The translations under genes were made by a program, and so were the position numbers. A model generated the notes under the pieces. The model worked only from the letters and a program-made list of their open reading frames with translations, was not told the origin of the DNA and did not search any database. A DNA stretch of 64,000 nucleotides. Source: an uncultured Thermodesulfobacteriota bacterium (GTDB lineage Bacteria > Desulfobacterota > GWC2-55-46 > JADFVP01). How positions within the stretch are numbered: the first letter of the stretch is position 1; each line of letters starts with the position of its first letter. The stretch spans positions 465 through 64,464 of the forward strand of contig CAYYUX010000001.1 of NCBI GenBank assembly GCA_964474975.1. The letters are read 5' to 3'. Shown here piece by piece: positions 568 to 20,938 of this stretch.

Positions 568-1514
568 GAGGCGGCGATAACACCGCGATGGCCGTAGAGA
601 GGCTTCACAATGGCCCGTCATTGGGAGCCCATAAGGGCTACAGGGTAGTGGATTGTCTGGAGTGCGGTTTTGCGCATATTTTACCACTGCCTCCGCCTGA
701 GGAGCTTGATAGGATCTACAGGGATGAGTACTTCACTCTGGAAAAGCCTGATTTTATCCGATACGCGCGCGAGGACAGAGAGTGGTGGAATGTTGTTTAT
801 GACGAACGCCTCGATGGATTTGAATCAATGCTTTCAGGCGGCAAGAAGAGATTATTGGACGTTGGATGCGGGCCGGGTTTTTTTCTTAAGAGGGCGGCAA
901 AGAGGGGTTGGCGATGCCTCGGCGTGGAACCATCTAAAGAGGCCTCAGCCCATGCGAAAGGCCTCGGTGTAAATGTTATCAACGGGTTTTTCAATGGCAG
1001 GACCATGGGGGAAGAGGGCCTTGCCTATGATGCCGTGCATATCTCCGAGGTCCTTGAACACGTAGCCGACCCGCTGGCCGTCCTTGAGGATGTATATGGA
1101 CTCCTTGACGACGGAGGTCTTGTATGCGCCGTCTCGCCAAATGACTTCAGCCCCGTACAGAAGGTGCTACGCAGAAGGCTCGGTCATAAGCCCTATTGGA
1201 TATCCGTGCCTCATCACATCAATTATTTTTCCTTTGAGAGCATGAAGGCCTTATTGATTAGGGCGGGTTTTTCCATAGCTCGCGTAAGGGCCACCTTTCC
1301 AATGGATTTTTTTCTCCTCATGGGTAAGGACTACGTAGGTGACGATGCCCTCGGCAGGGAGTGTCATAAAATGAGAACAAGGCTCGACATCATGCTGACC
1401 GACCCCGGGCTCAAGGGCTTTAAGGACGAGATGTACGCCCTTATGGCGTCTCATAATATAGGCAGGGAATTCGTGATTTATGGAGTCAAGGGGAGAGTCG
1501 GAATAAAAGGATAA
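564..1514 (+). CDS. Class I SAM-dependent methyltransferase with an N-terminal Cys-x-x-Cys/His segment
   Basis: Motif I LLDVGCGPGFF and post-I acidic residue, plus motif II/III (LAYDAVHISEVLEHVADP, LLDDGGLV). N-terminal 'YRVVDCLECGFAHILP' resembles the small zinc-binding module of sugar C/O-methyltransferases. The start at 564 overlaps the upstream stop by 4 nt; the ORF tool's longer start at 456 lies inside the upstream gene. Confidence 0.7.
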   Translation: MRGGDNTAMAVERLHNGPSLGAHKGYRVVDCLECGFAHILPLPPPEELDRIYRDEYFTLEKPDFIRYAREDREWWNVVYDERLDGFESMLSGGKKRLLDVGCGPGFFLKRAAKRGWRCLGVEPSKEASAHAKGLGVNVINGFFNGRTMGEEGLAYDAVHISEVLEHVADPLAVLEDVYGLLDDGGLVCAVSPNDFSPVQKVLRRRLGHKPYWISVPHHINYFSFESMKALLIRAGFSIARVRATFPMDFFLLMGKDYVGDDALGRECHKMRTRLDIMLTDPGLKGFKDEMYALMASHNIGREFVIYGVKGRVGIKG

Positions 1515-1525
1515 AAGGAGGGGTA

Positions 1526-2791
1526 ATGGGGGAGGTAATAGTAATGCTGCCGGAATCACTTCCCGTGGCAATCCCGCTTGTTGAGTATGTCTTCGGCAGG
1601 GAGGGCGGCAAGGCAGTGGATTTACTGATACTTGAGAAGCAGAGGGAGACCTTTGGAGATCTTATAGGGCAGTATGCGTTCAGAAAGGTATATGTCCTTG
1701 ACGAGGAGTACTACGGCGGCCTGAAAGACCCCGCCTCCCTTGCGTTTATGAGAAATAAGGCGATAAACCCTTACGATACCTCATATTTCCCTGTTAATAC
1801 CTTCAGGGCCAACGCCTTTCTCTTCGGCTCCATCATAGCGGGCGAGGCTCTTGCCGTCAACTCATCGTTATTTAACGTGAGAGAGAGCCTCCCCGAGACA
1901 ACATGCTCCCTTAATGAAGTTAAGATGCCCGATAGCTCTATTCCATGGGCGGCTGAAATCGCTACGATTCGCGCGGTTCTCGCCGAGATTATCCATACCC
2001 TTTCCCCCATGGAGGATACGCTGAAGGTCTCGGGGGAGCGGCCGAACCTCGGCATCCTCAAGGGCTTCGGCCATGACCTTGAGATATTCATGAAGTACGC
2101 ATACGGGATAGGTCCGGCCCGCGGCGCGCGGGTCCTTGATATCGGCGGCGGGCTTGGGTACGGGTCCTATCTACTCTCAAAATTCGCCGAAGAGGTCGTC
2201 TTTCTTGACAGGTCGGCTGAGACCACGGACTTTGTGATGGGAACATGGGCCGCCATCGCGCCGAACCTGAAGGCTGTATGCGGCGAGGCCTCGGATTTAA
2301 AGGGGTCTTACGGGGAGTTTGATACTATTTTTTTAATGGACGTCATAGAGCATGTGGAAGACCCGAAAGGGCTGTTACGGGACGTCAAGTCTCTGCTGAA
2401 GCCCGGCGGCACGCTCGTCCTCAGCACGCCTGAGGAGGATTATTACCCTTACCGGGTATGCCCGGCGGAGCGGCGCGGCGAGGCCGAGGCCGCGCTCATA
2501 GGCGATGCTATCTGGCCGTGGCACATACAGGGCCTCGGAGAGGCGGCTATGATGCCCATGCTCAAGAACTCCGGTTTTGAGGTGATAGAGAAAAGCTATC
2601 TTACCTACGTAAAGGGCCATGAGATAAAGAAAAGGCTTCGTACAGCGAGACAGTGCCAAGACTCTTTCGCCCTTTTCAAGGCGGCTGAGGATATAACAAA
2701 ATGGGATGTCGATGATTTCGGCCTTACAGCCATGCGGGACCCGTGTTTCTCGGCCGCGTCATATAACGTAGTTGCTAAAAAGGAGGCATAG
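1526..2791 (+). CDS. Two-domain protein: about 170-aa N-terminal domain of unknown function fused to a class I SAM-dependent methyltransferase
   Basis: C-terminal half has VLDIGGGLGYGSYLL (motif I), FDTIFLMDVIEHVEDP and LKPGGTLVLSTP. RBS AAGGAGGGG lies 4-5 nt upstream of the ATG at 1526 (alternative ATG at 1544). Confidence 0.65.
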   Translation: MGEVIVMLPESLPVAIPLVEYVFGREGGKAVDLLILEKQRETFGDLIGQYAFRKVYVLDEEYYGGLKDPASLAFMRNKAINPYDTSYFPVNTFRANAFLFGSIIAGEALAVNSSLFNVRESLPETTCSLNEVKMPDSSIPWAAEIATIRAVLAEIIHTLSPMEDTLKVSGERPNLGILKGFGHDLEIFMKYAYGIGPARGARVLDIGGGLGYGSYLLSKFAEEVVFLDRSAETTDFVMGTWAAIAPNLKAVCGEASDLKGSYGEFDTIFLMDVIEHVEDPKGLLRDVKSLLKPGGTLVLSTPEEDYYPYRVCPAERRGEAEAALIGDAIWPWHIQGLGEAAMMPMLKNSGFEVIEKSYLTYVKGHEIKKRLRTARQCQDSFALFKAAEDITKWDVDDFGLTAMRDPCFSAASYNVVAKKEA

Positions 2792-3883
2792 GTGCGGACA
2801 AGGGCGGCCGTGCTGGAAAAAAAGGACGCTCCACTGGTTATAAGGAAGATAGAGGTGGGCCTGCCGGGACCCGATGAGGTCCTTGTGAAGATGGATATGG
2901 CGGGGCTCTGCAGGAGCGACCTTAACGCCATTACAGGGCATACAAGATACAATATGCCCCTTGTCCTCGGTCACGAGGGTGCAGGCACGGTGGTGGATAC
3001 GGGCCGTAATGTCATTGGATTCAAAAGCGGAGACACCGTGGCCCTGAGCTGGGCCGCCTATTGCGGGAGATGCTATTTCTGCGAGCGCGGTGAGTCGCAT
3101 CTCTGTCATACCGTGGCGTGGCCGCGAGGCAGGGGTTTTCTCCCCGATGGGACTACGAGGTTTCGGGGCGGGAAGGCCGAGAAAATATATCACTTTAACG
3201 GCGTATCGTCTTTTAGCGAGTATACCGTTGTACACAAGACGAGTTGTGTGCCCACCCCGAAGGCCCTGCCTCTCTACGTTAGCGCGGCAACGGGGTGTTC
3301 TGTTGTAACGGCCATTGGAGCCGTATTCAGGACTGCCGGGCCATACCTTAAGAGCAACGCCACTGTTATGGTGGTTGGAGGCGGCAGTGTTGGGGCGGCC
3401 CTGTTGCAGGCCCTGAGGCTCAGGGGCGCGGGCAGGATTATCCTCATTGAAAAAGATGAAAAGAAGTGGAAGGCCCTGCCGGCGGATTACTATGCGCCGA
3501 GTATCGTATCTTTTGATATGGAGAGGCATACGTCAGGTATGGGCGTTGATATATGTTTTGACTGCGTGGCCTCAAAGGAGACTATAGAAAGGTCCATGGG
3601 GGCCGTTAGAAGGGGCGGAACGGTTGTAATGGTCGGCGCCCCTCATCCGAACTTGAAGATAGGGCTTAAGGCCGTTGATTTTCATCTTGAGAAGAGGCTC
3701 ATTGGTTCGCTTTACGGCTCATCAAATCCCCAAAGGGATATGCCCATGGTATTTGATTTTTACAAGAGGGGACTGCTTGACCTTAATGCCTCACGCGCGG
3801 AGACATACGGCCTTGGCGATATAAACCTTGCCGTTGAATCTCTTCGGGAGAAGGGCGGTAAATTCATCATAACATTTGATTGA
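2792..3883 (+). CDS. Zn-dependent alcohol dehydrogenase (MDR superfamily), GTG start
   Basis: Catalytic Zn ligands in CRSDL…GHEGAG, structural Zn Cys cluster CGRCYFCERGESHLC, and Rossmann motif VVGGGSVGAALLQA. Start abuts the previous stop (2789-2791 TAG, then GTG). Confidence 0.75.
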   Translation: MRTRAAVLEKKDAPLVIRKIEVGLPGPDEVLVKMDMAGLCRSDLNAITGHTRYNMPLVLGHEGAGTVVDTGRNVIGFKSGDTVALSWAAYCGRCYFCERGESHLCHTVAWPRGRGFLPDGTTRFRGGKAEKIYHFNGVSSFSEYTVVHKTSCVPTPKALPLYVSAATGCSVVTAIGAVFRTAGPYLKSNATVMVVGGGSVGAALLQALRLRGAGRIILIEKDEKKWKALPADYYAPSIVSFDMERHTSGMGVDICFDCVASKETIERSMGAVRRGGTVVMVGAPHPNLKIGLKAVDFHLEKRLIGSLYGSSNPQRDMPMVFDFYKRGLLDLNASRAETYGLGDINLAVESLREKGGKFIITFD

Positions 3884-3943
3884 AAGGCGGAAGCTCCGTC
3901 ATGAGGACGGTTGATGTTTTGTTTAAAAAAAAGGAGGACTCTT

Positions 3944-4636
3944 ATGAGGTTATTTCTCGATACAGCTGATATTAAAGAGATAAAAAAGGCAAAGTCGTGG
4001 GGGGTGTTAAGCGGTATAACGACAAATCCATCTATAATCGCGAGGCAGAAAAGAGATTTTCTCTCCCTTGCGAGAGAGATATGCGAGCTTGTTTATCCCA
4101 ATCCCGTGAGCCTTGAGGTCGTGGAGCGAGAGGCCGGTCCAATGGCGGATCAGGCCAGAAGGCTCGCCGAGATTTCGCGCAACGTCGTGGTTAAGCTTCC
4201 TGCCAATCCCGCCGGCATGGAGGCCTTGAACCTTATCCGCGGAGAGTCCATAAAGACGAACCTTACCCTTATCTTTTCTCCGACGCAGGCCCTGCTTGCC
4301 GCCATGGCCGGGGCTACTTTCATCAGCCCCTTTATAGGCAGGCTTGAGGACAGGGGCTATAACGGGCTCGGACTTATACGTGAGCTTATGGAGGCCTTTT
4401 CGCACCATGATACGGAGACGGAGGTCATCGCCGCGAGCATCCGTGACCCTCATCAGATAGTGGAGATAGCAAGGGCCGGTGTTCAGATAGCCACCGTGCC
4501 CTTTGTAGTGCTTGAGAAGATGCTCCTTAACAATATGACGGATATGGACCTTGAGAAGTTTTTAAAAGACTGGGAGGAGGTGCCGGGTCGTGAGCATGCC
4601 TTTAGAGAAGATATCAGAAAGGCCGCTGGAGCTTAG
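3944..4636 (+). CDS. Transaldolase / fructose-6-phosphate aldolase family (TalC/MipB-like small transaldolase)
   Basis: MRLFLDTADIKEI…SGITTNPSI…VVKLPANPAGMEAL…TLIFSPTQALLAAMAGATFISPFIGRLED are the hallmark blocks of the about 215-aa transaldolase/FSA family. Good RBS (AAGGAGG) upstream of the ATG at 3944. The tool's 3911 start is probably an artefactual extension. Confidence 0.7.
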   Translation: MRLFLDTADIKEIKKAKSWGVLSGITTNPSIIARQKRDFLSLAREICELVYPNPVSLEVVEREAGPMADQARRLAEISRNVVVKLPANPAGMEALNLIRGESIKTNLTLIFSPTQALLAAMAGATFISPFIGRLEDRGYNGLGLIRELMEAFSHHDTETEVIAASIRDPHQIVEIARAGVQIATVPFVVLEKMLLNNMTDMDLEKFLKDWEEVPGREHAFREDIRKAAGA

Positions 4637-5639
4637 GGCGGCCGTATTTAAGGGACCCGGGGAGCTTGGCATAAGGCGATGTAGCTTCGCGGGGATTAAA
4701 AAGAACGAGGTCCTTGTCTCTATAAAGGCATGCGGTATATGCGGGAGCGACCTTAATATTTTTCACAGGGATCCTCCTGTGCCCATGTACTGGGCGGGCC
4801 ATGAGATAAGCGGCGTCGTCGCGGAGCTTGGCCCCGGTGTAAGGGGTCTTAAGCGGGGTGCCCGCGTGTGCCTGTCTCCCCTTGTGCCATGCATGAGGTG
4901 CCGTCCCTGCAGGAGCGGCCGCGATAATCTCTGCGAGAACTCCACTTTTGTTAGTTTTAACCGGCCCGGCGGGTTTGCCGATATGGTGGCCCTGTCTGCC
5001 TCCAATGTCTTTGAGATACCTGAGGGAATGGGTTTTACGGAAGCCGTGCTCGTCGAGCCCTTTGCCGACGCCCTGCACGCCATATCCGTGGCAGGGAGGA
5101 TGGCAGGTAAAAGGGCGCTCGTAATAGGTTGCGGCACCCTGGGGCTGCTTACCGTCAAGGCCCTTTGTCTTGAGGGGGCTTCGTCTGTGAGCGTGCTTGG
5201 CAGATACCCTTACCAGAGAGAACACGCCCTGTCCATGGGGGCGGATAGGGCCATGGACCCGGAAGACGCCGCCTCGGGACTGCGTGACAAGGGACCCTTT
5301 GATGTGGTCTTTGAGACTGCGGGAGGCTTTGGGAGCGACTCCATTACATTGTCCATAGAGGCCCTTGCGGGCAGAGGCATAATGGTCCTATCAGGCGTGC
5401 ACTACAATACGCCGCGCATGAACCTCAAGGACCTTACAGAGAAGGAGATTCAGATAAGGGGCGCTCAGCGTTACAGAAAGAAAGACTTTAATATGGCCCT
5501 TGCCCATTTTGCCTCTGGAAAGGTAGAGGCGCGGGGGCTGATAACCCACAGAGTGAGCCTTGAAGACATTATGGAGGGCTTTGATATCGCCTTCCATAAA
5601 AAGCAGACAAAGGCCGTAAAGGTGGTGGTATGTCCGTGA
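4590..5639 (+). CDS. Zn-dependent alcohol/polyol dehydrogenase (threonine/sorbitol dehydrogenase-like MDR)
   Basis: CGICGSDLNIF…GHEISGVV catalytic Zn site, structural Zn CMRCRPCRSGRDNLC, and nucleotide fold LVIGCGTLGLL. 5' end overlaps the aldolase gene by about 45 nt; exact start is uncertain (ATG 4590 or 4596). Confidence 0.7.
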   Translation: MSMPLEKISERPLELRAAVFKGPGELGIRRCSFAGIKKNEVLVSIKACGICGSDLNIFHRDPPVPMYWAGHEISGVVAELGPGVRGLKRGARVCLSPLVPCMRCRPCRSGRDNLCENSTFVSFNRPGGFADMVALSASNVFEIPEGMGFTEAVLVEPFADALHAISVAGRMAGKRALVIGCGTLGLLTVKALCLEGASSVSVLGRYPYQREHALSMGADRAMDPEDAASGLRDKGPFDVVFETAGGFGSDSITLSIEALAGRGIMVLSGVHYNTPRMNLKDLTEKEIQIRGAQRYRKKDFNMALAHFASGKVEARGLITHRVSLEDIMEGFDIAFHKKQTKAVKVVVCP

Positions 5640-6880
5640 ATGTAGCAGGGAAAAAAATACTTGTAATATCAGGGGGCGTAGAGGCCCTGCCCATCATTGA
5701 GAAGGCAATTGATATGGGCCTTTATGTCCTTGTATCTGACGGCGATATGTCTGCCCCGGGCCTTGCCCTTGCCCATGAGGCAATTATCGCCAGCACATAC
5801 GACGCGGAAAAGACCCTGGAGCTTGCCCGTTCCACGGACCCCAACAGGCGTATAGCGGGCGTTATATCGGCGGCCGCCGATGTGCCCCGAACCGTTGCCC
5901 TCGTGGCCGATGCCCTGGGGCTCCCGGGGCCTTCACCCCGCTCGGCGCTCCTTGCAGGCAACAAGTTTCTTATGAAGATGGCCTTTAAGGATATGGGGCT
6001 GGCCGTGCCGTGGTTTGCCATGATAAACGGCCCTGACGATTTAAAGGCCCTTACACGCGGCTCGGCCAAGGCCTTTGTTGTAAAACCCGTTGACAGCCGG
6101 GGCGCGCGCGGTGTAATTCGGCTTACGAAGGATGTTGACTGCGGATGGGCCTTTTTTGAGGCAAAAAAGAACGCGCCATCAGGCGCTGTAATGGTCGAGG
6201 AATGGATAGACGGGATACAACTCAGCACAGAGTCCGTTGTGGCCGGGGGGACCGTGGCCACACCGGGATTATCTGAGAGAAATTACGAGTATATCGAGAG
6301 GTTCGCCCCATATGTCATAGAAAACGGCGGCGACCTTCCGGCCCGTCTTGAAGAGCAGACACTCAAGGCCCTCAACGAGCTGATACTCGGCGCGGCGCGT
6401 GCCTTTGGCATTGATGACTGGACCATAAAAGGCGATATCGTCTTGAGCGATAAAGGCCCCGTCATCATAGAGGCCGCGCCGAGGCTGAGCGGCGGTTATT
6501 TCTGCACTCACACCATACCCCTCTCATCGGGCGTCGATATTGTCGAGGCGGCCATACTGCTCGCGTTGGGCATAAAAGTATCTGTAGCGGATTACAACCC
6601 CAAATTCACCAAATTCATCTCGCAGAGGTTCTGGTTCCCCGAAGAAGGGCTCGTTAAAGAGGTATGCCGAAAATCGGGCCTTGAGTCCATGGCCGGGCTT
6701 GAGATGATGAGACTGCATGTGAGAGAAGGCGATACCATCTCTCCCATGGTCTCGCATCCGTCCCGGGCCGGGATGGTTATCACATCAGGGCGCTCAAGAG
6801 AGGAGGCCGTGGCCCGGGCAAGCGATGCCATCTCCGCTGTGAAAATAATAACTGAAAAACCCATGAGGATGGCGCGGTGA
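5630..6880 (+). CDS. ATP-grasp domain ligase (carboxylate-amine ligase type)
   Basis: N-terminal pre-ATP-grasp Rossmann-like region (KILVISGG…), central ATP-grasp fold (…AFVVKPVDSRGARGVIRL…MVEEWIDGIQLSTE…) and a C-terminal substrate domain. Start overlaps the upstream stop (ATG…TGA overlap at 5630-5639). Confidence 0.65.
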   Translation: MSVNVAGKKILVISGGVEALPIIEKAIDMGLYVLVSDGDMSAPGLALAHEAIIASTYDAEKTLELARSTDPNRRIAGVISAAADVPRTVALVADALGLPGPSPRSALLAGNKFLMKMAFKDMGLAVPWFAMINGPDDLKALTRGSAKAFVVKPVDSRGARGVIRLTKDVDCGWAFFEAKKNAPSGAVMVEEWIDGIQLSTESVVAGGTVATPGLSERNYEYIERFAPYVIENGGDLPARLEEQTLKALNELILGAARAFGIDDWTIKGDIVLSDKGPVIIEAAPRLSGGYFCTHTIPLSSGVDIVEAAILLALGIKVSVADYNPKFTKFISQRFWFPEEGLVKEVCRKSGLESMAGLEMMRLHVREGDTISPMVSHPSRAGMVITSGRSREEAVARASDAISAVKIITEKPMRMAR

Positions 6881-8478
6881 TGATAAAGAGAATACTCCTT
6901 CTTCAGCCTAATATGAAGATAGCCACCTCGGGCCAGCGCATAGTCTATCCGCCCATGGGTATCCTCTATCTTGCCTCCGTGCTTGAGGTCGAAGGTTACA
7001 CTGTAGCAATACTCGATTGTCAGACAGAGGGCCTCGATAGAGATGCGCCTCTGCGCGGCGGTTATGTGGATGTAGGCATCCCCATGGAAGAGATTGGCGC
7101 GAGGATTTTAAAGTTCAAACCGGACCTTGTCGGCATAAGCTGTAATTTTTCCGTAATGGTCGGCTCCATGAACGAGACGGCAAGACTCGTCAAGGAGCTT
7201 TTGCCGTCTGCCGTAGTGGTGGCGGGAGGCAATCACCCCACTTCCATGGCAGAGGAGGTTATGGAAAACCAGGCCATAGATTTTGTCCTGAAGGGTGAGG
7301 CCGAGCTATCATTTCCCGCCCTTCTTGCCGCCATGGAAGGGGATTGCGGGGGCTGTGAAGACTGCGATTGCGGCAAGGAGAGCAAAAAGAGTAGCGGCAG
7401 TAATGAGGATAATGATAAGGATGTCAGCGAGCCTCTTGCCTATAGTGCCGTGCCGGGCCTTGTCTGGAGAGATGGCGGCGTTGTGGTAAGTAACGCTCAG
7501 GGACCTTTTATTAAAGACCTCGATTCGTTGCCCTTTCCGGCGTGGCATCTTTTTCCATACGAAAAATATTCCAGCTTCTATAAACCCAAAAAAGTCACCT
7601 GGGGTCAGCCGCAGGCCATGCCCACGGTTCTTACAACGCGGGGATGCGCCGGCACATGCGTTTTCTGCTCAGTACACAGGACCATGGGAAGAAAATTCCG
7701 GGCGAGAAAGCTTGACGAGGTCTTTCGTGAGATAAGGTTTCTTGTAGATACATACAAGATAAGAAAACTCATGATAATAGACGACAACTTCACCCATGAC
7801 AGGGCGCGGGCAAAGGAGTTCTGCGATGAGTTCAAGAGGCAGGGCTTTAATATTGAGATACACTTCATGGTTCTTGCCCTCTGGTGCATGGACGAGGAGC
7901 TTATAGATAAACTCGTGGAGATAGGATGCGTCTCAATGGGTTTTGCCATAGAGTCCGGCGTGCAGGACGTGCTTACAAAGGTTGTTAAAAAACCCCTTAA
8001 GCTTACAAGGGCCATGGAGGTCCTTCGCTACGCAAAGAAGCAGGGCGTCTTTCTTACGGGGACCTTTGTCATAGGACTTCCCGGTGAGACTAAAAAAGAC
8101 ATCAGAAGGTCGCTCTACATGGCGAACTACAGCGGTCTCTTTGATAGCAGAGAGATTTATATCGCTACGCCCCTGCCCGGCACGGAGCTCTTCGGCAGGT
8201 GTGAGAGCGAGGGGCTATTCGCCGAGGGCTTCAGCTACGATAGGCTTGAGGTGGTAAAACCCAATATCACGACAGGGGATTTTACCGCAGGTTACATCGA
8301 GACAATAGTCGAAGCCGACAGGACTCATCACCTTATAAAGTCCAACCCTGCACATGCCCCGCATTATATAGCCGACGTTTGGCGGCGAAAGAGGCCCATT
8401 TTCATGAACGTCCTTTTTGAGACATCAGGCATGTTCATAAAATACGATCTACTTAAGATGAAGGAGAGCTATCCGTGA
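6877..8478 (+). CDS. B12 (cobalamin)-binding radical SAM enzyme
   Basis: N-terminal B12-binding domain pattern (ILLLQPN…PPMGILYLASVLEVEGYTVAILDC…GISCNFSV…VVVAGGNHPT), then a radical-SAM cluster motif CAGTCVFC (CxxxCxxC). Contains an unusual Cys/Asp-rich insert GDCGGCEDCDCGKESKKSSGSNEDNDKD. ATGA overlap with the upstream gene. Confidence 0.7.
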   Translation: MMIKRILLLQPNMKIATSGQRIVYPPMGILYLASVLEVEGYTVAILDCQTEGLDRDAPLRGGYVDVGIPMEEIGARILKFKPDLVGISCNFSVMVGSMNETARLVKELLPSAVVVAGGNHPTSMAEEVMENQAIDFVLKGEAELSFPALLAAMEGDCGGCEDCDCGKESKKSSGSNEDNDKDVSEPLAYSAVPGLVWRDGGVVVSNAQGPFIKDLDSLPFPAWHLFPYEKYSSFYKPKKVTWGQPQAMPTVLTTRGCAGTCVFCSVHRTMGRKFRARKLDEVFREIRFLVDTYKIRKLMIIDDNFTHDRARAKEFCDEFKRQGFNIEIHFMVLALWCMDEELIDKLVEIGCVSMGFAIESGVQDVLTKVVKKPLKLTRAMEVLRYAKKQGVFLTGTFVIGLPGETKKDIRRSLYMANYSGLFDSREIYIATPLPGTELFGRCESEGLFAEGFSYDRLEVVKPNITTGDFTAGYIETIVEADRTHHLIKSNPAHAPHYIADVWRRKRPIFMNVLFETSGMFIKYDLLKMKESYP

Positions 8479-8508
8479 TACAGGGCTTTTTATCGGGGGG
8501 ATTATAAG

Positions 8509-10575
8509 ATGGCGGGGTTGTCTCTTTACGCTCTTTTTCACTGCAACCTTGCCTTCTCGCTTATAGGGAGAGAAGAGTTCAGGGCGGTTATCAAGAGGTG
8601 CTATCGTCCGTTGCTTGAGTTAGCCGGGGAGGGGCTTCCCATTGGTATAGAGATGAGCGCATGGACCCTTCGTCAGGTTCATCAACTTGAGCCTGATTTC
8701 ACAAGGAGGCTCAGCGATTTATGGGGGGCGAAGAGGCTGAGTTTCATCGGCTCGGGTTACGCCCAATCCATAATGCCGCTGATACCGGCAGAGGTGAACC
8801 GCTGGAACCTGAGGCTCGGCAATAAGTACTATGAGCAGATACTTGGCAGGGCCCCGAGCATTGCCCTTGTAAACGAGCAGACTTTTTCATCGGGGCTTGT
8901 AGGCCTTTATAAAGAGGCCGGCTACGAGACCATTATCATGGACTGGAATAATTCATGCCGTCATAAGAATTTTTCAAATCAAAGATTGTACTCTCCTCAG
9001 AGGGCCGCGGGAAGGTCGCCCGGTGAGGAGATAGGGCTCCTTTGGTCTCACTCCATCGCCTTTCAGAAGTTCAGTCGGTGCGTTCACGGCGAGTTTTCAC
9101 AAAAAGAATATATGGATTATCTTCTCTCCCATCATGAAGAGGGCGAGGAGAGGGCCTTTGTCGCCTACTCCAACGATGCCGAGGTCTTTGATTTTTGCCC
9201 CGGCAGAGGGGAGTCTCCGCGAGGCGACTTTGAGAGGGTAAGGGAGCTGTTAAAGGGGATAATGGACGAGAAGAGATTCGTCCTCTTAACACCTGAGGAA
9301 ATTTTAAATAAATTCAAGCCAGACCCATCTGCCGGACCCATGAGACTTGAGTCCGTTGAGACCCCCGTGGTCTCCAAGAAGCAGGAGAGGTATAACCCCG
9401 TCAGGTGGTCTGTAACGGGAAGGGACAGCGCCCATATAAACGCGCGGTGTCATACTTTGTATAAAAGGCTTGAGGCAATCTTCAGAGATGGAGGCGTAAA
9501 AGAAAAAGATATATTACGTGAAAAACTCTGCGAGTTCTGGGGCTCTGATTTCAGGACAAATACCTGCGACGACAAGCTCCGGTACTTTAACGAATCCATG
9601 GGGTGGCTGAGTCTTGAGACGGAACGCCTCCTGAGAGAGGCAGGGCTTGATGTGACCGAAGCGCTCCGCCCTTCCGAAGTATTCAGCGTTACAAAAGAGA
9701 GGGCTTCCGCGGGCATGGTCTTATGCGGCGCGGGTCTTTGCAGAGGGCCGTGGCCGGGGCAGTCTGTCAGGGGCTTTAACGCACTTGAGGTGGACGATGA
9801 TAAAAGGCGGGTGACTATCCGCGCACAAGAAGTGGAGCTGACCCTATTAAAAGACAGGGGGCTGGCCCTTTCTTCGGCGTCCTTTCCGGGGATTTCGGAT
9901 AAAGCTCTACTCGGCACCCTCGGCCACGGGTATTTTGATTCCATTGAACTCGGCGCGGATTTTTTTTCCGGCCACCTTATACATACGAGCCGGGACGGGG
10001 TAAAGACTACGGATCTTTGCCCCGCGCCTCACACTATCAGGGAAGATAGCGGCGGGCTGAGTATCTCCTCGGACATCGAGACACCCATAGGCCTCCTTGA
10101 AAAGACTTATCATATTCCGCGCCGCGGGGCGGAATTCTCCCTTACTTACAAGATAAAGGCCCCGGCCCTTCAGGCCTCAAGCCTCCGTCTCGGCATATTT
10201 ACCTTCATGCCCGAGGCATTTGATGTAGATGAGCTTTGGTTTGAAACGGTAAACGGCGGAATGGGGCCTGAGAGGTTTTATCTGAAGGGGCACAGGCTCT
10301 CTCACGACGAGCCCGTGAGCCCGGCCATCTCGGCATCGGGATGCCTCGGAGCCACAGAGGGATGGGTGGCCTTTGGCGATACAGAGAAAAGTCTTATCAT
10401 CAGCTCGGAGAGGCGTTTTGTACACACTGTACCCATGATAAATTACAGGGAATCCGGTGACAAGTTTTTCCTTCGCCTCTATCATTCCGCGGGAGAGCTT
10501 GATGATACCTCGTACTGGCTGTGGCGCGGAAGCAATGAAGTAACATTTATCATAAGGGCCAAGGGTCCGGCGTGA
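8509..10575 (+). CDS. Large (688 aa) protein with an N-terminal glycoside-hydrolase-family-57-like domain; catalytic role uncertain
   Basis: N-terminus 'LYALFHCNLAFSLIGREEFRAVIKRCYRPLLELAGE…IIMDWNN' parallels the GH57 'hNHQPxxNF…FEEAYEKCYxPxLExL…VIVDDYHF' blocks. The His-Gln-Pro signature is replaced by His-Cys-Asn. The remaining about 450 aa are unassigned. Fold similarity was judged by eye only. Confidence 0.4.
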   Translation: MAGLSLYALFHCNLAFSLIGREEFRAVIKRCYRPLLELAGEGLPIGIEMSAWTLRQVHQLEPDFTRRLSDLWGAKRLSFIGSGYAQSIMPLIPAEVNRWNLRLGNKYYEQILGRAPSIALVNEQTFSSGLVGLYKEAGYETIIMDWNNSCRHKNFSNQRLYSPQRAAGRSPGEEIGLLWSHSIAFQKFSRCVHGEFSQKEYMDYLLSHHEEGEERAFVAYSNDAEVFDFCPGRGESPRGDFERVRELLKGIMDEKRFVLLTPEEILNKFKPDPSAGPMRLESVETPVVSKKQERYNPVRWSVTGRDSAHINARCHTLYKRLEAIFRDGGVKEKDILREKLCEFWGSDFRTNTCDDKLRYFNESMGWLSLETERLLREAGLDVTEALRPSEVFSVTKERASAGMVLCGAGLCRGPWPGQSVRGFNALEVDDDKRRVTIRAQEVELTLLKDRGLALSSASFPGISDKALLGTLGHGYFDSIELGADFFSGHLIHTSRDGVKTTDLCPAPHTIREDSGGLSISSDIETPIGLLEKTYHIPRRGAEFSLTYKIKAPALQASSLRLGIFTFMPEAFDVDELWFETVNGGMGPERFYLKGHRLSHDEPVSPAISASGCLGATEGWVAFGDTEKSLIISSERRFVHTVPMINYRESGDKFFLRLYHSAGELDDTSYWLWRGSNEVTFIIRAKGPA

Positions 10576-10599
10576 CCCCCTTAAGAGACGGGAGTTGAG

Positions 10600-12516
10600 A
10601 TGAGTATATTCGAGAAAAACTACGATGTAATCGCGCAAAAAGACAGTATCCTCGCCGATAGGCTCCGTGCCTTTAGCGGCGAGAGGGCCTCTGTCGAGCG
10701 GGCCGCCAATAAAGAGTTTGTACTGCGCTTCAAGGGCCGTCTCTTTAATAGCGCTTACGGGCCATGGAAGGAGGCATCCCTGCAGGCAGAGGAGATAATG
10801 AACAAAAAAGCGGACTGTGTGGCCCTCTTCGGCCTTGGTTGCGGCTACCTGCTTCGCACCCTTTTGAAGTTGGAGACAAAAAAGATATTTATTTTCGAGC
10901 CTTCCATGGAGATACTTACAGGCGTGCTGGAAAAAATAGACCTTAGCTCTGAGCTGAAGGGGCAGAATGTTTTCCTTGCCAATTATATAGGGCCTTTTGT
11001 CTCATGGATTCAGCGCTTTACCGAGGGCTTCGATAATATCATAGGCTACCATACCATGCCTTACAGATTGACCTTTCCCCATGAGCTAAGGGATTTCATG
11101 GTTAAGATAGAGAACGCCCATACCTCGCAGAAGGTCGGCATAAAGACGGAGATAGATTCAAGGGTGGACTGGCTGAAAAATTATTTTTCCAATCTAGAGT
11201 CATTCTTTACTTATCCCTCAGTAGACGTCCTTACGGAGAGGTTAAAGGGAATTCCCATGATCATCGTAGGCGCGGGGCCGTCTCTCAGTAAAAACGCCGC
11301 CCTCCTCGCGGAAATAAAAGACAAGGCCTTTATAGTATCGGCCATTACGGCCTATAAGAGCCTCTTGAAGTTAGGCGTTGTCCCCCATGCCGTGATAGCC
11401 GGGGAAAAGGTAGACCTTGACGAGTATTTTGACGGCGGCGAGCCCGATAGAGAGATTCGTCTCATCTTATCAGAGGTCTCTCACCCGGCAATGTTCCGTA
11501 GAGAGGCCAGCGGTAAATTTATCTTTTACAGCCCCTATATAGCCCTCAGCCTCGAGCAGGCAAGCCTCTGGGGAAGCTCCTCCTTTGTATCAATAGGAGG
11601 GTCTGTAACTACGGCCATTTTTGACATGGGCGTCAAGTTCGGCTGTGACCCCATTGTTTTTATCGGACAGGACCTTGCCTTTGAGAATGGACATAGTCAC
11701 GCGTCGGGAGGTGTTTATGACGGGCAGAGGGTCGTTATTGATAAAGAAAGGGGGGTTGTTGAGGTAAGAGAACACTATATTTCCGGCCATAAGCGCACTA
11801 TGCGCCACAAGCTTCAGTGGCTTAAGGATATTGAGGGCAAACCTGTTGCGAGTAAATATGACTGGGTTACCTTTCACCAGTGGTTTGAGCGTTATATGAT
11901 TCTTCTGAAAGAGGAATACCCCGATATACGTGTCGTTAACGCCACTGAAGGCGGCGCCTTTATAAAGGGCATGGAGCATAAGCCCCTTAAAGAGGTTATC
12001 TCAAAATATATCCTTGATCCCGAGCCCGTGGAGGATATTCTTGCTTCTGCGGCGGCCATGCGTCCCGAGGTGGATACGGCAGGTCTTGTAGAGGCCTTTA
12101 AGAGACTGGAGCTGAATGTAGCCCTTGTCTCAAAACTTTCATCGCAGATTGTAGCAGAGGCGGAAAAGATGCGGACAGCCTTTCAGATGAAAGGCCTTCG
12201 CACAGAACTTGGCGATAACCTTGGGAAGATAAGAAAGAAGGAGAAAAAACTTTTTAATGCCGCCCGCAAGGTAGCTTTTCTATGGGAGGCCCTTGTGGAG
12301 TACACCTACGACCTTAAGAGCTACCTTAAAGAGGCAGTTGACCGCTCCACGGAAGATCAGTTCAGTAAAGACATCGAGCGTACGATACGCACATACACGG
12401 AGGTGAGAAAGAAATGCGATCTCTTCGCCCCCATGGTGCGTGAGGGCCTTTCGTATGTAAGGCTTCTTCATGAGAGGTCAGCTCAGGACCGGCCCGTAGC
12501 CGTTAATCATAGATAA
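10600..12516 (+). CDS. maf: Motility accessory factor (Maf family, DUF115/MptE-like) - flagellin nonulosonic-acid glycosyltransferase
   Basis: Characteristic Maf N-terminus MSIFEKNYDVIAQKDSILADRLRAF. Central MptE-like domain with the IVGAGPSL motif. About 640 aa in length, located immediately upstream of the flagellin locus. Confidence 0.75.
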   Translation: MSIFEKNYDVIAQKDSILADRLRAFSGERASVERAANKEFVLRFKGRLFNSAYGPWKEASLQAEEIMNKKADCVALFGLGCGYLLRTLLKLETKKIFIFEPSMEILTGVLEKIDLSSELKGQNVFLANYIGPFVSWIQRFTEGFDNIIGYHTMPYRLTFPHELRDFMVKIENAHTSQKVGIKTEIDSRVDWLKNYFSNLESFFTYPSVDVLTERLKGIPMIIVGAGPSLSKNAALLAEIKDKAFIVSAITAYKSLLKLGVVPHAVIAGEKVDLDEYFDGGEPDREIRLILSEVSHPAMFRREASGKFIFYSPYIALSLEQASLWGSSSFVSIGGSVTTAIFDMGVKFGCDPIVFIGQDLAFENGHSHASGGVYDGQRVVIDKERGVVEVREHYISGHKRTMRHKLQWLKDIEGKPVASKYDWVTFHQWFERYMILLKEEYPDIRVVNATEGGAFIKGMEHKPLKEVISKYILDPEPVEDILASAAAMRPEVDTAGLVEAFKRLELNVALVSKLSSQIVAEAEKMRTAFQMKGLRTELGDNLGKIRKKEKKLFNAARKVAFLWEALVEYTYDLKSYLKEAVDRSTEDQFSKDIERTIRTYTEVRKKCDLFAPMVREGLSYVRLLHERSAQDRPVAVNHR

Positions 12517-13305: not shown

Positions 13306-13332
13306 TAAAGGTTCTTACCCAACTGCCGATAA
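13306..13332 (+). promoter_or_regulatory. sigma-28 (FliA) class-III promoter for flagellin
   Basis: TAAA(13306-13309)-N15-GCCGATAA(13325-13332) is an exact match to the TAAA-N15-GCCGATAA consensus, about 120 nt upstream of the fliC start. fliA is encoded in this window. Confidence 0.6.
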
Positions 13333-13453
13333 GGTTATTAAGGGTCCGGTGGCATATATGGCGGGAAGGGGGGGTCTCATAGAGATGCCTTTTGCCATAC
13401 GGACAAATAATTATCTGGCAGGGATGCCGTAAAACACTAAGGAGGGTAAGAAC

Positions 13454-17220: not shown

Positions 17221-18018
17221 CTATTTGAAAAGGCTTTCTTCATTTCCAAGCGAGAATTTTTTCTTTTCCACAAGGATACTCACACGCCTGTTTATGGGAT
17301 CAAAGGTATCCTTGCCGTTCAGGGGCGCTACATCGGCAAAGCTCGAGACTCGGGATATGCGCCGTTCATTAAGGCCGTCACGCACAAGCTCCCTCCTCGC
17401 GGCGTTGGCCCTCTCTGCGGCAAGCTCCCAGTTAGTATGCTCCTTGTTAGCGAACTTGAAGCTGTCCGTGTGTCCCTCTATGGCTATCTGGTTGGGCATA
17501 TCTTTGAGGGTTTCCGCAAGAACTTTTAAGACGTCTTTACCCCTCTTAACGAGCCTGGCTCCGCCGCGTTCAAACATGGGGCTGTCATCAAGGTCCACAA
17601 GCTCAAGCCTTACACCATTGGTAGTGGTAAATATGAGTATCTGTTTTTTCATACTGCTGAGCCTTGTATTAACCGTCTTGGTTATCTGTAAAATGATATC
17701 ATTATTGGATTTCTTTGTGGGTACTGGTTTGGATGAACTCTTGTTTAACATGAGGGGGTTGCCTGACATGACGGATATCCCCTTGCCGCCTCCTGCCTCG
17801 GTACCCTCGAATATGGTGTAGCTTCTGAAGTATTCGGCCATACCCTTCTTGGACTCTATGGACATCATGGCTACAAGCCAGAGAACCATGAAAAAGGCCA
17901 TCATCGCCGTTACAAAGTCGGCGTAAGCAACCTTCCATGCGCCACCGTGATGCCCTCCGCCGTGGCCTTTTTTTATTACCTTTTTTATGATTATGGGTTG
18001 TGTATCGTTGTTGTCCAA
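17221..18018 (-). CDS. motB: Flagellar stator protein MotB
   Basis: N-terminal GGHHGGAWKVAYADFVTAMMAFFMVLWLV plug/TM segment and C-terminal OmpA-like peptidoglycan-binding domain (…IAIEGHTDS…WELAAERANAARREL). Stop-start overlap with motA. Confidence 0.85.
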   Translation of the reverse strand: MDNNDTQPIIIKKVIKKGHGGGHHGGAWKVAYADFVTAMMAFFMVLWLVAMMSIESKKGMAEYFRSYTIFEGTEAGGGKGISVMSGNPLMLNKSSSKPVPTKKSNNDIILQITKTVNTRLSSMKKQILIFTTTNGVRLELVDLDDSPMFERGGARLVKRGKDVLKVLAETLKDMPNQIAIEGHTDSFKFANKEHTNWELAAERANAARRELVRDGLNERRISRVSSFADVAPLNGKDTFDPINRRVSILVEKKKFSLGNEESLFK

Positions 18019-18032
18019 CTCGAATCCTCCTC

Positions 18033-18890
18033 TTATTTTTTCTTCTGCTCCTTGATGGCGTCTTCCAGATCCTTGAAGGATGGCCGAGCGCCGCTGAAGA
18101 CGGTTCTCCTTCCGGCCTCAACGGCCATCTGCGGCGGAAGGTCTTTCGCAAAGGCGAGGAGGGCTATCTTTATGGCCTCGATATACTTCGAATCATCCCT
18201 GTTCTTGTGCTCAAGATGACTGCCGAGGGGGCCTACTACGCCGTAGCTCAGAAGTATGCCGAGAAAGGTGCCCACAAGGGCCGCCGCTACGCTATGACCG
18301 ATGACCTCCGGGCCGTCGCTCATCTTGCCCATTGTGATGACGATGCCGAGTACGGCCGCTACAATGCCGAAACCGGGCAGGGCATCTCCCACCTTGGTAA
18401 TAATCCCCGGGGTTACACCGGCCTCCTCATGGTGGCTGTCCATCTCGATATCCATGAGATCTTCCATCTCCGTTGGCTTGATGCCGATGATAAAGACCCT
18501 CAGGTTGTCGCAGAGAAAATCAAGGGCATGGTGATTCTTCATGATGAATTTATTGGCCTGAAAGATTGCGCTCTCTTTTGGATTTTCAACGTCTTTTTCT
18601 ATAGAGAGGAGCCCCTCCTTCTTTATCTTTGTGAATATGTTGTACAGGAGCGTCAGGAGCGCGATATAGTGACTCTTCTTAAGGGTACTGCCTTTTATGA
18701 TGGCTGGTATGGACTTGAAGACGTCCTTCAGCAGGTTCGATGGGCATGATACGATAAGCGACCCCAGTGCCGCTCCACCGATGGTTATTAGCTCCGCAGG
18801 CTGAATGAGAATGGAAAAGTTGCCTTCCTCCATAGTGTAACCTGCGGCAATGGCGCCGAATACTACGATGAGTCCTATTATTGGCAACAT
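18033..18890 (-). CDS. motA: Flagellar stator protein MotA
   Basis: Four-TM MotA/TolQ/ExbB architecture: MLPIIGLIVVFGAIAAGYTMEEGN…, cytoplasmic loop, and C-terminal …PEVIGHSVAAALVGTFLGILLSYGVVGPL…. Confidence 0.85.
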   Translation of the reverse strand: MLPIIGLIVVFGAIAAGYTMEEGNFSILIQPAELITIGGAALGSLIVSCPSNLLKDVFKSIPAIIKGSTLKKSHYIALLTLLYNIFTKIKKEGLLSIEKDVENPKESAIFQANKFIMKNHHALDFLCDNLRVFIIGIKPTEMEDLMDIEMDSHHEEAGVTPGIITKVGDALPGFGIVAAVLGIVITMGKMSDGPEVIGHSVAAALVGTFLGILLSYGVVGPLGSHLEHKNRDDSKYIEAIKIALLAFAKDLPPQMAVEAGRRTVFSGARPSFKDLEDAIKEQKKK

Positions 18891-19167
18891 GGCAATCCTT
18901 TTAACTTAAGATAAATTTTTATAGTTATTACGGCAGTTATCCGCGTCTGAAAGGGGCCTGTCTCTATTCACTCCCCTTCTTTTACACATCGGATGGGTAT
19001 AGCAAAACTTTATGGTAAATACCTCTCATCCATAGAAGGTAAGTAGGCACTCTTCCCTTGCCGTGTCACTAAACCGACTATTTAACCTCTCATCACATTC
19101 TATATTGACACCCACCCTCCTTTAACGTATAATTCAAACTCACCTCGAATAAATCTTCCCGTCCCAA

Positions 19168-19385
19168 GGGGCATATATTTCTTCCTGAGATTCATTTCGA
19201 TATTATTGGGGGCCTTTTTACTATTTCCGATATTCACCTCGGGCTATATTGGGGCCACGTTTTTCTTCCTGAGATTCATCTCAGCCCTTATGAGGGCTAC
19301 TTTCTTCATCCTGACATCCCCCTCGGCCTTTGTGGGGCCTCTTTACTTCCATCTTGAGATCCATACAGGAGTTGCAGGGCGGTTT
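19168..19385. repeat. Array of about 5 degenerate tandem repeats with an about 41-45 bp period in the motA / sigma-54-activator divergent intergenic region
   Basis: Units share TTTYTTCCWGAGATYCAY…(A/T)TTGGGGCC. For example, 19176-19196 'tttcttcctgagattcatttc' recurs as 19262-19282 'tttcttcctgagattcatctc'; compare 19301 'tttcttcatcctgacatcc' and 19342 'tttacttccatcttgagatccat', each followed by a GGGGCC/GGGGCCT block. The tool ORFs 19206-19541 and 19330-19566 are low-complexity artefacts of this array. Confidence 0.6.
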
Positions 19386-19537
19386 TGTCTCAACGCATCC
19401 CCCTATACTCCATGGCGGTTTTCACAGCTCAGGCTTTACAGATCTCGAAGTACATATTGCATACTCAGTTTATTGTCGAGACATACTCATCTTGATATAC
19501 ATCCTCGATATCATCTTTTATACAAAAGGAGAGATAC

Positions 19538-20938
19538 ATGAGGAAAAAAAATGTTATTTTAGTTGAGGAAGAAGGCCAGCTCACTCAATTCCTCAAAGAA
19601 AAATTTCGTGCCGAGGATTATTCCATAAACACCATTAAAAAGCCTGATGCCGCCATAAGCTACATTCGTCGAAATACTCCAAACGTAGTCATAGCGGATC
19701 TCAACATCACCGGTCTCGATGATATTGAGTTTGTGCGTTCCATCGCAGGCGCGAGTCCGAGCTCAAGCATCATAGTCATACCCCGTGACGGATCCGTAAA
19801 AAAGGCCATGGATGCCCTTAACGCGGGTGCCTTTTCCTACATAAAGAAGCCTTTTAATAAAGTAGAGGTCCTTGTGACCATTGAGAAGGCCTTTGAGGTT
19901 AGCGATCTTACGGCGGAAAATCTCAGGCTGAAACGTAACATCGGCCACAAATTGAAGGACCGTCTCCTCGGCACGAGCGACAAGATAGAGCATGTGCGGA
20001 GTATTATAGACAAGGTGGCCGATACGGACTCCACTGTGCTTATACTCGGCGAGAGCGGAACGGGCAAGGAGATAGTGGCAAAATCCCTCCACTTCGGCAG
20101 TAACAGGGCGAGCGCGCCCTTTGTCCCCATAAACTGCGGCGCCATCCCCGAAGACCTCCTTGAGAGCGAGCTCTTTGGACACGAAAAGGGAGCCTTCACA
20201 GGGGCCATAGCCACAAAGATAGGAAGGTTCGAGGCCGCGAACGGCGGAACCGTTTTTCTTGATGAGGTAGGCGATATGAGCCCCGGTCTTCAGGTTAAGA
20301 TATTGAGGGTCCTGCAGGAAAAGGAGTTCGAGAGAGTTGGCGGAAGGAAGACCATCAAGGTGGACATCAGAGTCATCGCGGCTACGAATCAGGACCTTGC
20401 CAGAGGCATAAAAGATAAAACTTTCAGGGAAGACCTCTATTACAGACTTAATGTAATACCAATAGACATGCCTCCTTTACGGGAAAGGAAAGAAGATATA
20501 CCCGTATTTATTAAACATTTTCTCAAAACCATCTCAAAGAAGAAACATAAGAATGTGACAACCATCTCCCCTGATGCCATGAGTCTTTTTGAAGAGTACG
20601 AATGGCCGGGCAATGTTCGTGAGATGGAAAATGTCATAGAGCGTATAGTGGTATTGAAGGAAAGGGGCATGGTGACGGAAAAGGACCTGCCAGACAACAT
20701 AAAAAAAGCCACTGTCCTGCTCTCAAGAAAACGCGTCAAGGGCTTTGATTATCGCGTTTACATCTCCCCCGAGGGTGTTGATTTTAATTCCGTAGTGGAT
20801 AAGTTCGAGACTGACCTCATTGTTAATGCCCTTGATATGGTTAATGGCGTAAAAAAGAACGCCGCAAAGTTCCTTAAGCTCAACAGGACAACCCTCATCG
20901 AGAAGATGAAGAGAAAGGGACTCCGCCTTGATGCCTAA
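19538..20938 (+). CDS. NtrC-family sigma-54-dependent transcriptional activator (receiver - AAA+ - HTH); FleQ/FlrA-like flagellar master regulator candidate
   Basis: N-terminal receiver-like domain, then AAA+ sigma-54 interaction domain (GESGTGKE Walker A, GAFTGA loop in '…EKGAFTGAIA…', ESELFGHEKGAF), and a C-terminal Fis-type HTH (…NGVKKNAAKFLKLNRTTLIEKMKR). RBS AAAGGAG upstream. Not adjacent to a kinase, unlike the second activator at 24438. Confidence 0.8.
   Translation: MRKKNVILVEEEGQLTQFLKEKFRAEDYSINTIKKPDAAISYIRRNTPNVVIADLNITGLDDIEFVRSIAGASPSSSIIVIPRDGSVKKAMDALNAGAFSYIKKPFNKVEVLVTIEKAFEVSDLTAENLRLKRNIGHKLKDRLLGTSDKIEHVRSIIDKVADTDSTVLILGESGTGKEIVAKSLHFGSNRASAPFVPINCGAIPEDLLESELFGHEKGAFTGAIATKIGRFEAANGGTVFLDEVGDMSPGLQVKILRVLQEKEFERVGGRKTIKVDIRVIAATNQDLARGIKDKTFREDLYYRLNVIPIDMPPLRERKEDIPVFIKHFLKTISKKKHKNVTTISPDAMSLFEEYEWPGNVREMENVIERIVVLKERGMVTEKDLPDNIKKATVLLSRKRVKGFDYRVYISPEGVDFNSVVDKFETDLIVNALDMVNGVKKNAAKFLKLNRTTLIEKMKRKGLRLDA

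Follow-up and report, generated by a model that had tools for sequence, protein, structure and literature searches.

We analysed a stretch of 64,000 nucleotides (nt) from an uncultured Thermodesulfobacteriota bacterium (contig CAYYUX010000001.1, positions 465 to 64,464 of the forward strand), hereafter called the window, which holds a flagellar gene cluster. Between motA and the divergently transcribed gene of a sigma-54-dependent activator we found a degenerate tandem array on the plus strand (19140-19391), which comprises six units, each 40-43 nt long. The array lies just downstream of a perfect sigma-70 promoter. Its repeated element is a short pyrimidine-rich module, which is conserved in related bacteria, is confined to one strand, has been amplified independently in several lineages and differs in copy number between them. 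Based on these findings we tentatively propose, at somewhat less than an even chance, that the mRNA of the activator starts with a leader RNA that offers multiple single-stranded binding sites to a trans-acting factor.

The array is located in a 647-bp intergenic region (18891-19537). An earlier note on this DNA had pointed out an unusually long divergent region beside a flagellar activator, and the gap is indeed the longest intergenic region within the window. The repeats with a phase of about 43 bp that were reported there proved to be real. Autocorrelation of the first 270 nt past the promoter gave 52% self-identity at a lag of 42 nt (z=9.0) and 49% at a lag of 84 nt (z=6.6), and 300 dinucleotide shuffles gave at most 0.40 at their best lag. 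Tandem Repeats Finder, the type of program by which the note had proposed to define the units, reported nothing on the window array even at score 30, because the units are just about 50% identical. The array was defined by autocorrelation and a position weight matrix (22 columns) in its place, together with an alignment of the units. The unit starts were found at 19140, 19180, 19222, 19264, 19306 and 19349, so that the five units previously placed at 19168-19385 became six, starting about 28 nt earlier. The consensus of the array unit in the window is tTTCtTCCTGAgATtCAtcTCGG.cTTt.TGGGGGC, and TTTCTTCCTGAGATTCAT occurs exactly at 19178 and 19262, i.e. 84 nt apart. The G-run TGGGGGC is also preserved among the units, in agreement with the G-rich blocks described before, which are present after each unit. 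A coding reading of the array was tried and rejected, as units of 42-44, 16 or 15 nt, and likewise a 44-nt indel among the relatives described below, break the reading frame.

The repeated element was identified as a module of about 22 nt, YCATCYYGA-N-AT-N-CAYCYCGR, containing the core CAYCYYGR twice. The module is asymmetric and all copies have the same orientation, leaving no dyad symmetry of the sites. A matrix trained on other lineages alone gave five matches of at least 12 bits in the 400 nt preceding the activator gene in the window, as compared to 0.016 per 400 nt in unrelated loci. Hand-picked instances served to build the matrices, and leave-lineage-out tests were used to control for circularity; the background with the leave-lineage-out matrices was 0.02-0.05 matches per 400 nt. 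The core itself was found five times on the plus strand and not once on the minus strand of the same region, with 0.10 expected from the composition. Mere low-complexity pyrimidine bias, which the note had named as a possible source of the similarity, does not account for the number of matches or for the 5:0 strand count. Within the 64-kb window the cluster of modules is unique to this region. A weak extra copy was detected in the non-repetitive spacer (19440-19461, plus strand), for which the full matrix gave 10.4 bits and that from other lineages 13.7 bits. The supposed second repeat family at 19450-19515 was not a separate one, since 19487-19508 is the best-scoring copy (26 bits) of the same module.

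Relatives of the locus were found by a search with the activator protein and by exact-protein look-ups. All of them are metagenome assemblies of uncultured Thermodesulfobacteriota, with activators 87-98% identical to that of the window and a shared motBA-activator-TPR gene order. Among them, the larger part of the intergenic DNA was hardly alignable. Locus L081 (activator 98% identical) has a near-perfect array with a period of 44 nt and 5.6 copies (91% matches, Tandem Repeats Finder). L083 (91%) has about four units of about 41 nt and in addition a 15-nt unit in 3.3 copies, and L086 (88%) has a different unit of 16 nt in 8.1 copies. L082 (91%) showed no detectable periodicity; seven module copies at intervals of 44-84 nt were found there on the plus strand only, with a matrix trained without L082. 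The leaders of L087 (87%) and L176 (89%) are GC-rich and have one and two copies, respectively, besides the copy proximal to the ribosome-binding site (RBS). The unit periods by lineage were thus 42, 44, about 40, 16 and 15 nt, and the phasing of four helical turns suggested earlier is not conserved. On the plus strand the core CAYCYYGR was counted 5 times in the window, 15 times in L081, 13 in L172 (of the same lineage as L081), 9 in L083 and 8 in L086; it was never found on the minus strand, with about 0.1 expected.

The units of the window, L081 and L083 could be aligned over their first 22-24 nt only, which correspond to YCATCYYGA-N-AT-N-CAYCYCGR. At least four lineages amplified segments independently, and the same core is present in each of these segments. 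Although identity among the units of the window has fallen to about 50%, 6-7 module positions have survived on one strand there, as in L082. The retention of seven modules in L082 after its periodicity was lost suggests that selection has acted on the module and not on the entire unit. Since the core has been amplified independently at different lengths and persists past the decay of periodicity, it appears to be the motif and not the unit that matters.

The leader of L172 is base-for-base identical to that of L081 except for exactly one 44-nt unit (6 units in L081 and 5 in L172), a difference that could reflect collapse in short-read assembly. The length variation raised as a possibility in the earlier note is supported by this pair, with the same caveat, and by the array length and unit size varying by lineage. 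The properties of a variable-number tandem repeat, namely head-to-tail copies above chance and a copy-number difference between close genomes, were both found, the two close genomes (L081 and L172) being short-read metagenome assemblies. Metagenome contigs were also observed to start or end in or beside the leader arrays (L086 1-175, L173 1-60 and the starts of L176/L177). This suggests that the repeats break short-read assemblies, and array lengths in public metagenome-assembled genomes may be underestimated.

Such variation raises the alternative that the array is a largely neutral minisatellite, in which the 5'-terminal and the RBS-proximal modules are functional and everything between them is slippage junk seeded from these two, with at most an effect of length on expression, in the manner of the AGAT repeats in the Moraxella uspA2 leader. 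The unit-sized indel between otherwise identical leaders, the near-perfect young arrays of L081 and L086, the lack of arrays in L087 and L176 and the contigs that break within arrays (L086, L173) would all fit this explanation. It does not readily explain why 6-7 module positions persist on one strand when the window units are only about 50% identical and L082 is aperiodic, or why at least four lineages independently amplified segments sharing the core, and we regard it as unlikely.

The sigma-70 promoter preceding the activator gene (TTGACA-N17-TATAAT, 19105-19133, plus strand) matches the consensus at 12/12 positions and is intact in five lineages (the window, L081, L082, L083 and L087). From the promoter spacing the start site is predicted at about 19140-19142. 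Because this conserved promoter precedes the array, the array falls within the predicted transcribed 5' leader of the activator mRNA, which would be about 400 nt long (19140-19537, plus strand). The leader is pyrimidine-rich (26% C, 18% G, 34% T). GGA is strongly depleted on its plus strand, with 0-3 per leader in the window and the relatives as compared to a window average of about 6 per 380 nt. The only clear plus-strand GGA are at the Shine-Dalgarno (SD) sequence and at codons 2-3 (AUGAGGA), and all lineages have conserved both. Around the array, neither promoter-like nor terminator-like sites were found on the minus strand in the window or in four relatives (L081, L082, L083, L087).

In the earlier note the repeats had been suggested to be an array of upstream sites for a DNA-binding regulator, possibly with FleQ-like autoregulation. 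The position of the promoter speaks against this, as the entire array is 3' of it and just the first copy touches the start site. A better candidate for autoregulation is a separate, conserved 14-bp box upstream of the promoter, GTCACTAAACCGAC (GTC-N8-GAC; 19065-19078, plus strand), which is situated between the divergent promoters as a putative operator. It is the sole exact GTCNNTAAANNGAC match in 64 kb and is conserved in the relatives. The FleQ consensus of P. aeruginosa is GTCaNTAAAtTGAC (PMC6120874), and by sequence resemblance the box has the 14-bp GTCaNTAAAtTGAC-like form of a FleQ-type operator. As a site of activator autoregulation it is more plausible than the repeats, and we offer it as a lead.

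The repeats may also act as a DNA operator array of another kind, in which a repressor or nucleoid-associated protein occupies the double-stranded DNA over the start site and the first 250 bp transcribed, blocking initiation or acting as a roadblock to elongation. The first CAYCYYGR (19141) does coincide with the predicted start site, and in four lineages its distance from the -10 box is the same; direct repeats in one direction also suit monomeric or head-to-tail DNA binders, and stable RNA structure was not found. The spacing of the sites is not what such an array would lead one to expect, varying from 9 to 12 nt inside the units and with periods of 15, 16, 42 and 44 nt, so that helical phasing is not conserved. 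Furthermore, the best-conserved copy stands about 350 bp away from the promoter and abuts the SD sequence, with which it can pair, and the core is degenerate for C/T in a way that agrees with the tolerance of RNA for G-C and G-U pairs. An operator array on the DNA is in our view improbable, to about the same degree as the neutral minisatellite.

The RBS-proximal copy of the module, TCATCTTGATATACATCCTCGATATCATCTTTT (19487-19520, plus strand), has three CATC at 12-nt spacing. It has the top matrix score (26 bits) and is retained in all seven lineages, among which the columns CATC..GA.A..CATC.T.G are invariant. With RNAalifold, a consensus hairpin that would sequester the RBS was predicted from both the six- and the seven-lineage alignment (19502-19544, plus strand). 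In its first predicted arm UCCUCG (19502-19507) pairs with UGAGGA (19539-19544, which includes bases 2-3 of the start codon), and in its second UCUUUU (19514-19519) pairs with AAAGGA (19525-19530) of the SD region. The pairing of the SD sequence and the start codon is kept in 6-7 lineages, which by prediction places the structure among SD-sequestering leader hairpins. The hairpin is the minimum-free-energy fold in the window (-12.8 kcal/mol, z=-2.3) and was found in 4/6 single-sequence minimum-free-energy folds. The six-lineage alignment contained one double change, in a poorly kept pair, and the 3' arm is constrained by the SD sequence and by coding. The C-to-U changes in the 5' arm keep G-U pairs and are consistent with a plus-strand RNA. 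The conserved RBS-proximal sequence extends past what the helix needs. Elsewhere the leader appeared to have little structure. The fold of 421 nt was not better than shuffles on either strand (z=-0.6 and -0.2), the arrays were largely unstructured (z from -2.1 to +0.9) and no shared fold was found among the units.

Taken as a leader RNA with binding sites for a trans-acting factor, the locus could work as follows. The module of about 22 nt, tandemly duplicated within a predicted untranslated leader of about 400 nt, would act as single-stranded RNA. Since this leader would come from a conserved perfect sigma-70 promoter, the activator is expected to be controlled largely post-initiation. The RBS-proximal copy overlaps the predicted hairpin and would thereby be linked to the concealment of the SD sequence and the AUG, and the upstream copies would together make a multivalent docking site for the same factor, which may be an RNA-binding protein or a purine-rich RNA with GGAUG-like motifs. 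The lack of structure in the array is as expected of a single-stranded binding platform. Binding of the factor would set the translation, stability or premature termination of the activator mRNA, and the copy number, changed by slippage, may tune the response. A further and rather doubtful step is to see in the leader a new type of cis-regulatory RNA, where an expandable CAYCYYGR array would serve as a cooperative 'sponge in cis' that binds either a dedicated RNA-binding regulator or an RNA rich in GGAUG, with slippage giving heritable graded motility.

Several observations weigh against a leader RNA of this kind. The start site, the transcription of the leader and the direction of transcription are all predictions from the sequence. 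The overlap of the first core copy (19141) with the predicted start site suits a DNA operator equally. L087 and L176 are without arrays, and multiplicity would seem dispensable because these two manage with one or two copies besides the RBS-proximal one. The unit difference between L081 and L172 could, as mentioned, be an assembly artefact. The stability of the hairpin is modest across the lineages (z from -2.3 to +0.2), and no compensatory changes were found in it among seven lineages, only one-sided C-to-U changes preserving G-U. The idea that the upstream modules are redundant anti-RBS segments was not supported, as their complementarity to the start region was not above that of composition-matched shuffles. 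Finally, no candidate trans-acting factor was identified. A partner small RNA with a complementary motif was searched for in the other intergenic regions of the window and not found.

The unstructured leader could also be a loading zone for Rho, with C in excess over G and a YC at about every 12 nt forming a rut site from which Rho would attenuate transcription unless the leader is protected. Rut sites are C-rich, G-poor and unstructured over about 80 nt or more. The C/G ratio across the leader is 1.1-1.7 (76th-97th percentile of the window), stable structure was not found, about 400 nt are untranslated and the CATC stand at 12-nt spacing beside the RBS, all of which would suit Rho. The C excess is moderate only, the conserved motif is more specific than YC and has an invariant G, and the G-runs of the units are atypical of rut sites. 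Rho loading is quite improbable in our view.

Two more explanations were judged very improbable. In the first, the minus strand would give a CsrB/RsmZ-like sponge, either as a small RNA or as a long motAB leader, whose CAGGAUG/GAGGAUGU-type motifs in the reverse complement titrate CsrA. The core of the CsrA consensus from systematic evolution of ligands by exponential enrichment is GGAUGU, and the reverse complement of the module matches it. A CsrA system is probably present, because the flagellin leader has a CsrA-type hairpin. GGA was counted 12 times on the minus strand of the window leader, 22 times in L081 and 14 times in L083. The 12 are within the range of the window as a whole (mean 6.2, standard deviation 3.1, 99th percentile 14), and only 3/12 are unpaired in the fold. 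In L086 and L087 the counts were 4 and 7, which gives a range of 4-22 by lineage. Around the array no minus-strand promoter-like or terminator-like site was found, and the sigma-28-type promoter of motAB (see below) is downstream of the array in the minus sense. Nor did Rfam give any match in the window region (to E=10) or in the loci of six relatives (to E=1), the weak matches being unrelated and far under the gathering scores, and a simple pattern search of the window did not turn up any CsrA-like signature, which is a weak negative. The second, an array of attenuators in which each unit is a terminator hairpin with a U-tract behind a protein-binding site and serves as one of a series of antitermination checkpoints, could draw on four plus-strand terminator-like sites in the window array as compared to 0.8 expected, and was rejected because such sites are not conserved (none in L081 despite 5.6 near-perfect units, none in L082, one each in L083 and L087), the stems have 5-6 pairs, the U-tracts are interrupted and the units share no fold.

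The leader lacks defining properties of a CsrB-type RNA, of a terminator attenuator and of an upstream activator-site array, and is in no curated RNA family. In function it would be most like other repeat-bearing 5' untranslated regions (UTRs), by analogy with the AGAT tract of uspA2 and the TAACTGA leader arrays of Beggiatoaceae. In Moraxella catarrhalis the copy number of AGAT repeats in the uspA2 leader tunes expression (Attia and Hansen 2006, as summarised in PMC4679880). Both there and here direct repeats stand between the promoter and the start codon and copy number differs by strain (here L081/L172). The units here are 15-44 nt as compared to 4 nt, and the internal motif outlives the decay of the unit; the likeness is read from the sequence. 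Arrays of the heptamer TAACTGA are found upstream of start codons in Beggiatoaceae, cyanobacteria and Bacteroidetes, where a post-transcriptional role was proposed (PMC4679880). They share with the present array short motifs in one orientation in leaders near the RBS, and contigs that often break there. That heptamer is found genome-wide at hundreds of loci, whereas the present array is at one locus in 64 kb and differs in sequence, unit size and phylum.

The 5' leader of Escherichia coli flhDC is a hub of post-transcriptional regulation by CsrA and several small RNAs (PMC7652899). Like it, the leader predicted here is long and untranslated, belongs to a putative top flagellar regulator and follows a sigma-70 promoter, and regulation at the level of the leader is proposed. 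The regulator here is a sigma-54 activator instead of FlhDC, and the flhDC leader has no repeats. Moreover, the motifs here are pyrimidine-rich, i.e. complementary to CsrA sites, and GGA is scarce on the plus strand. CsrB, RsmY and RsmZ are similar in having many copies of a short motif in about 350 nt, and the reverse complement of the module resembles a CsrA site. They differ in that the array is on the wrong strand for its sole conserved promoter, has no promoter or terminator of its own and no Rfam match, and presents few GGA in loops. A likeness to fourU-type RNA thermometers is seen in the U-run UCUUUU, which is predicted to pair with AAAGGA of the RBS, and in a further arm over the start codon. 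Unlike in those thermometers, the pairing is a prediction without covariation, conservation extends beyond it (three CATC) and the sequence is repeated upstream. The C/U-rich seed regions of small RNAs such as RsaE and RepG target G-rich RBS. Similar pyrimidine-rich motifs that resemble an anti-SD sequence (CACCUC, CAUCCUC) are found here, several per RNA. In contrast to RsaE and RepG, the motifs belong to the leader of an mRNA, there is no conservation of terminators by which a short RNA would be set free, and complementarity to the leader's own start was not above chance.

The activator gene (19538-20938, plus strand) encodes a sigma-54-dependent response regulator of 466 aa with REC, AAA+ and Fis-type helix-turn-helix domains (Pfam). 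Against NCBIfam it showed generic NtrC-family similarity only, under every equivalog cut-off. By gene order it is the first regulator of the flagellar cluster, and from this gene context it would be the flagellar 'master regulator'. It is followed by a TPR protein, a histidine kinase, a second NtrC-type regulator, FlgB and FlgC, and farther along the cluster by FlhF, a MinD/ParA-type ATPase, a FliA-like sigma factor, CheR and CheY-like proteins. The first part of the window holds a flagellin glycosylation island, flagellin, FliD, FliS and a PilZ protein, and then MotBA on the other strand. The probable glycosylation island (456-12516, plus strand), 5' of the flagellin gene, includes two methyltransferases, dehydrogenases, a transaldolase-like protein, an ATP-grasp ligase, a B12-binding radical SAM enzyme, a GH57-like protein and a Maf/MptE-like protein.

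On the other side of the intergenic region, motA (18033-18890, minus strand; Pfam MotA_N 1.2e-26, MotA_ExbB 1.5e-12) is followed by motB (17221-18018, minus strand). Two moderate matches to the module matrix (10.6-14 bits) were observed antisense inside the motA coding sequence, at 18389 and 18440 on the plus strand of the window and at 1260 and 1311 in L081; their positions are conserved, which is probably due to coding constraint. A sigma-28 (FliA)-type promoter, TAAAGTTT-N11-TCCGATGT (18986-19012, minus strand), precedes motAB, with both boxes conserved in all relatives aligned. It is situated between the array and motA and therefore cannot bring the repeats into the motA mRNA. The 5' UTR that it would give is purine-rich and about 90 nt long. 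Pairing of this UTR with the activator leader, after the manner of MotR, was considered and rejected, as it was not above shuffles in any of five lineages. The flagellin gene has a promoter of the same architecture, TAAAGGTT-N11-GCCGATAA (13306-13332, plus strand). Both promoters were assigned by their likeness to the FliA consensus. In the flagellin leader a hairpin GGCA-GGGA-UGCC (13417-13428, plus strand) with GGA in the loop was observed, followed by the SD sequence AGGAGGG (13440-13446). Such a two-site layout, with GGA in a hairpin loop and at the SD sequence, is typical of flagellin mRNAs controlled by CsrA/FliW.

Among the relatives sampled, the long repeat-bearing leader was observed only in those linked to motBA, with at least 87% activator identity. 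A 61%-identical homologue in L175 (1002-1077) has the same perfect TTGACA-N17-TATAAT promoter and a leader of just about 40 nt; no MotA was called upstream of it, and an FlhG-like ATPase and a sigma factor are encoded downstream. An activator lineage 81-82% identical to that of the window (P0010/P0011; loci L174 and L090) was found in another context, with no motA called in either locus. L090 has a PAS histidine kinase 5' of the activator and no module copy at a 9-bit threshold, and L174 has one good copy (496-517, 16 bits) about 150 nt 5' of the start codon. Scans of genome and metagenome contigs with the activator protein gave NtrC paralogues only (36-54% identity), and no motA was found at the genome-contig loci.

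Flagella are costly to make, and their synthesis is usually gated by the top regulator. In the present clade the flagellar decision is probably made on the leader, because the regulator has a perfect promoter of constitutive type and a leader of 350-500 nt. The independent amplification of the module at different unit sizes and its retention after the units decayed point to an unrecognised pair of factor and motif. The lineages also provide a natural copy-number series, from 1 to about 15, in which the multiplicity of sites could be studied against the regulatory response. If copy number varies within populations as well, the array would be a simple, heritable tuning knob for motility.

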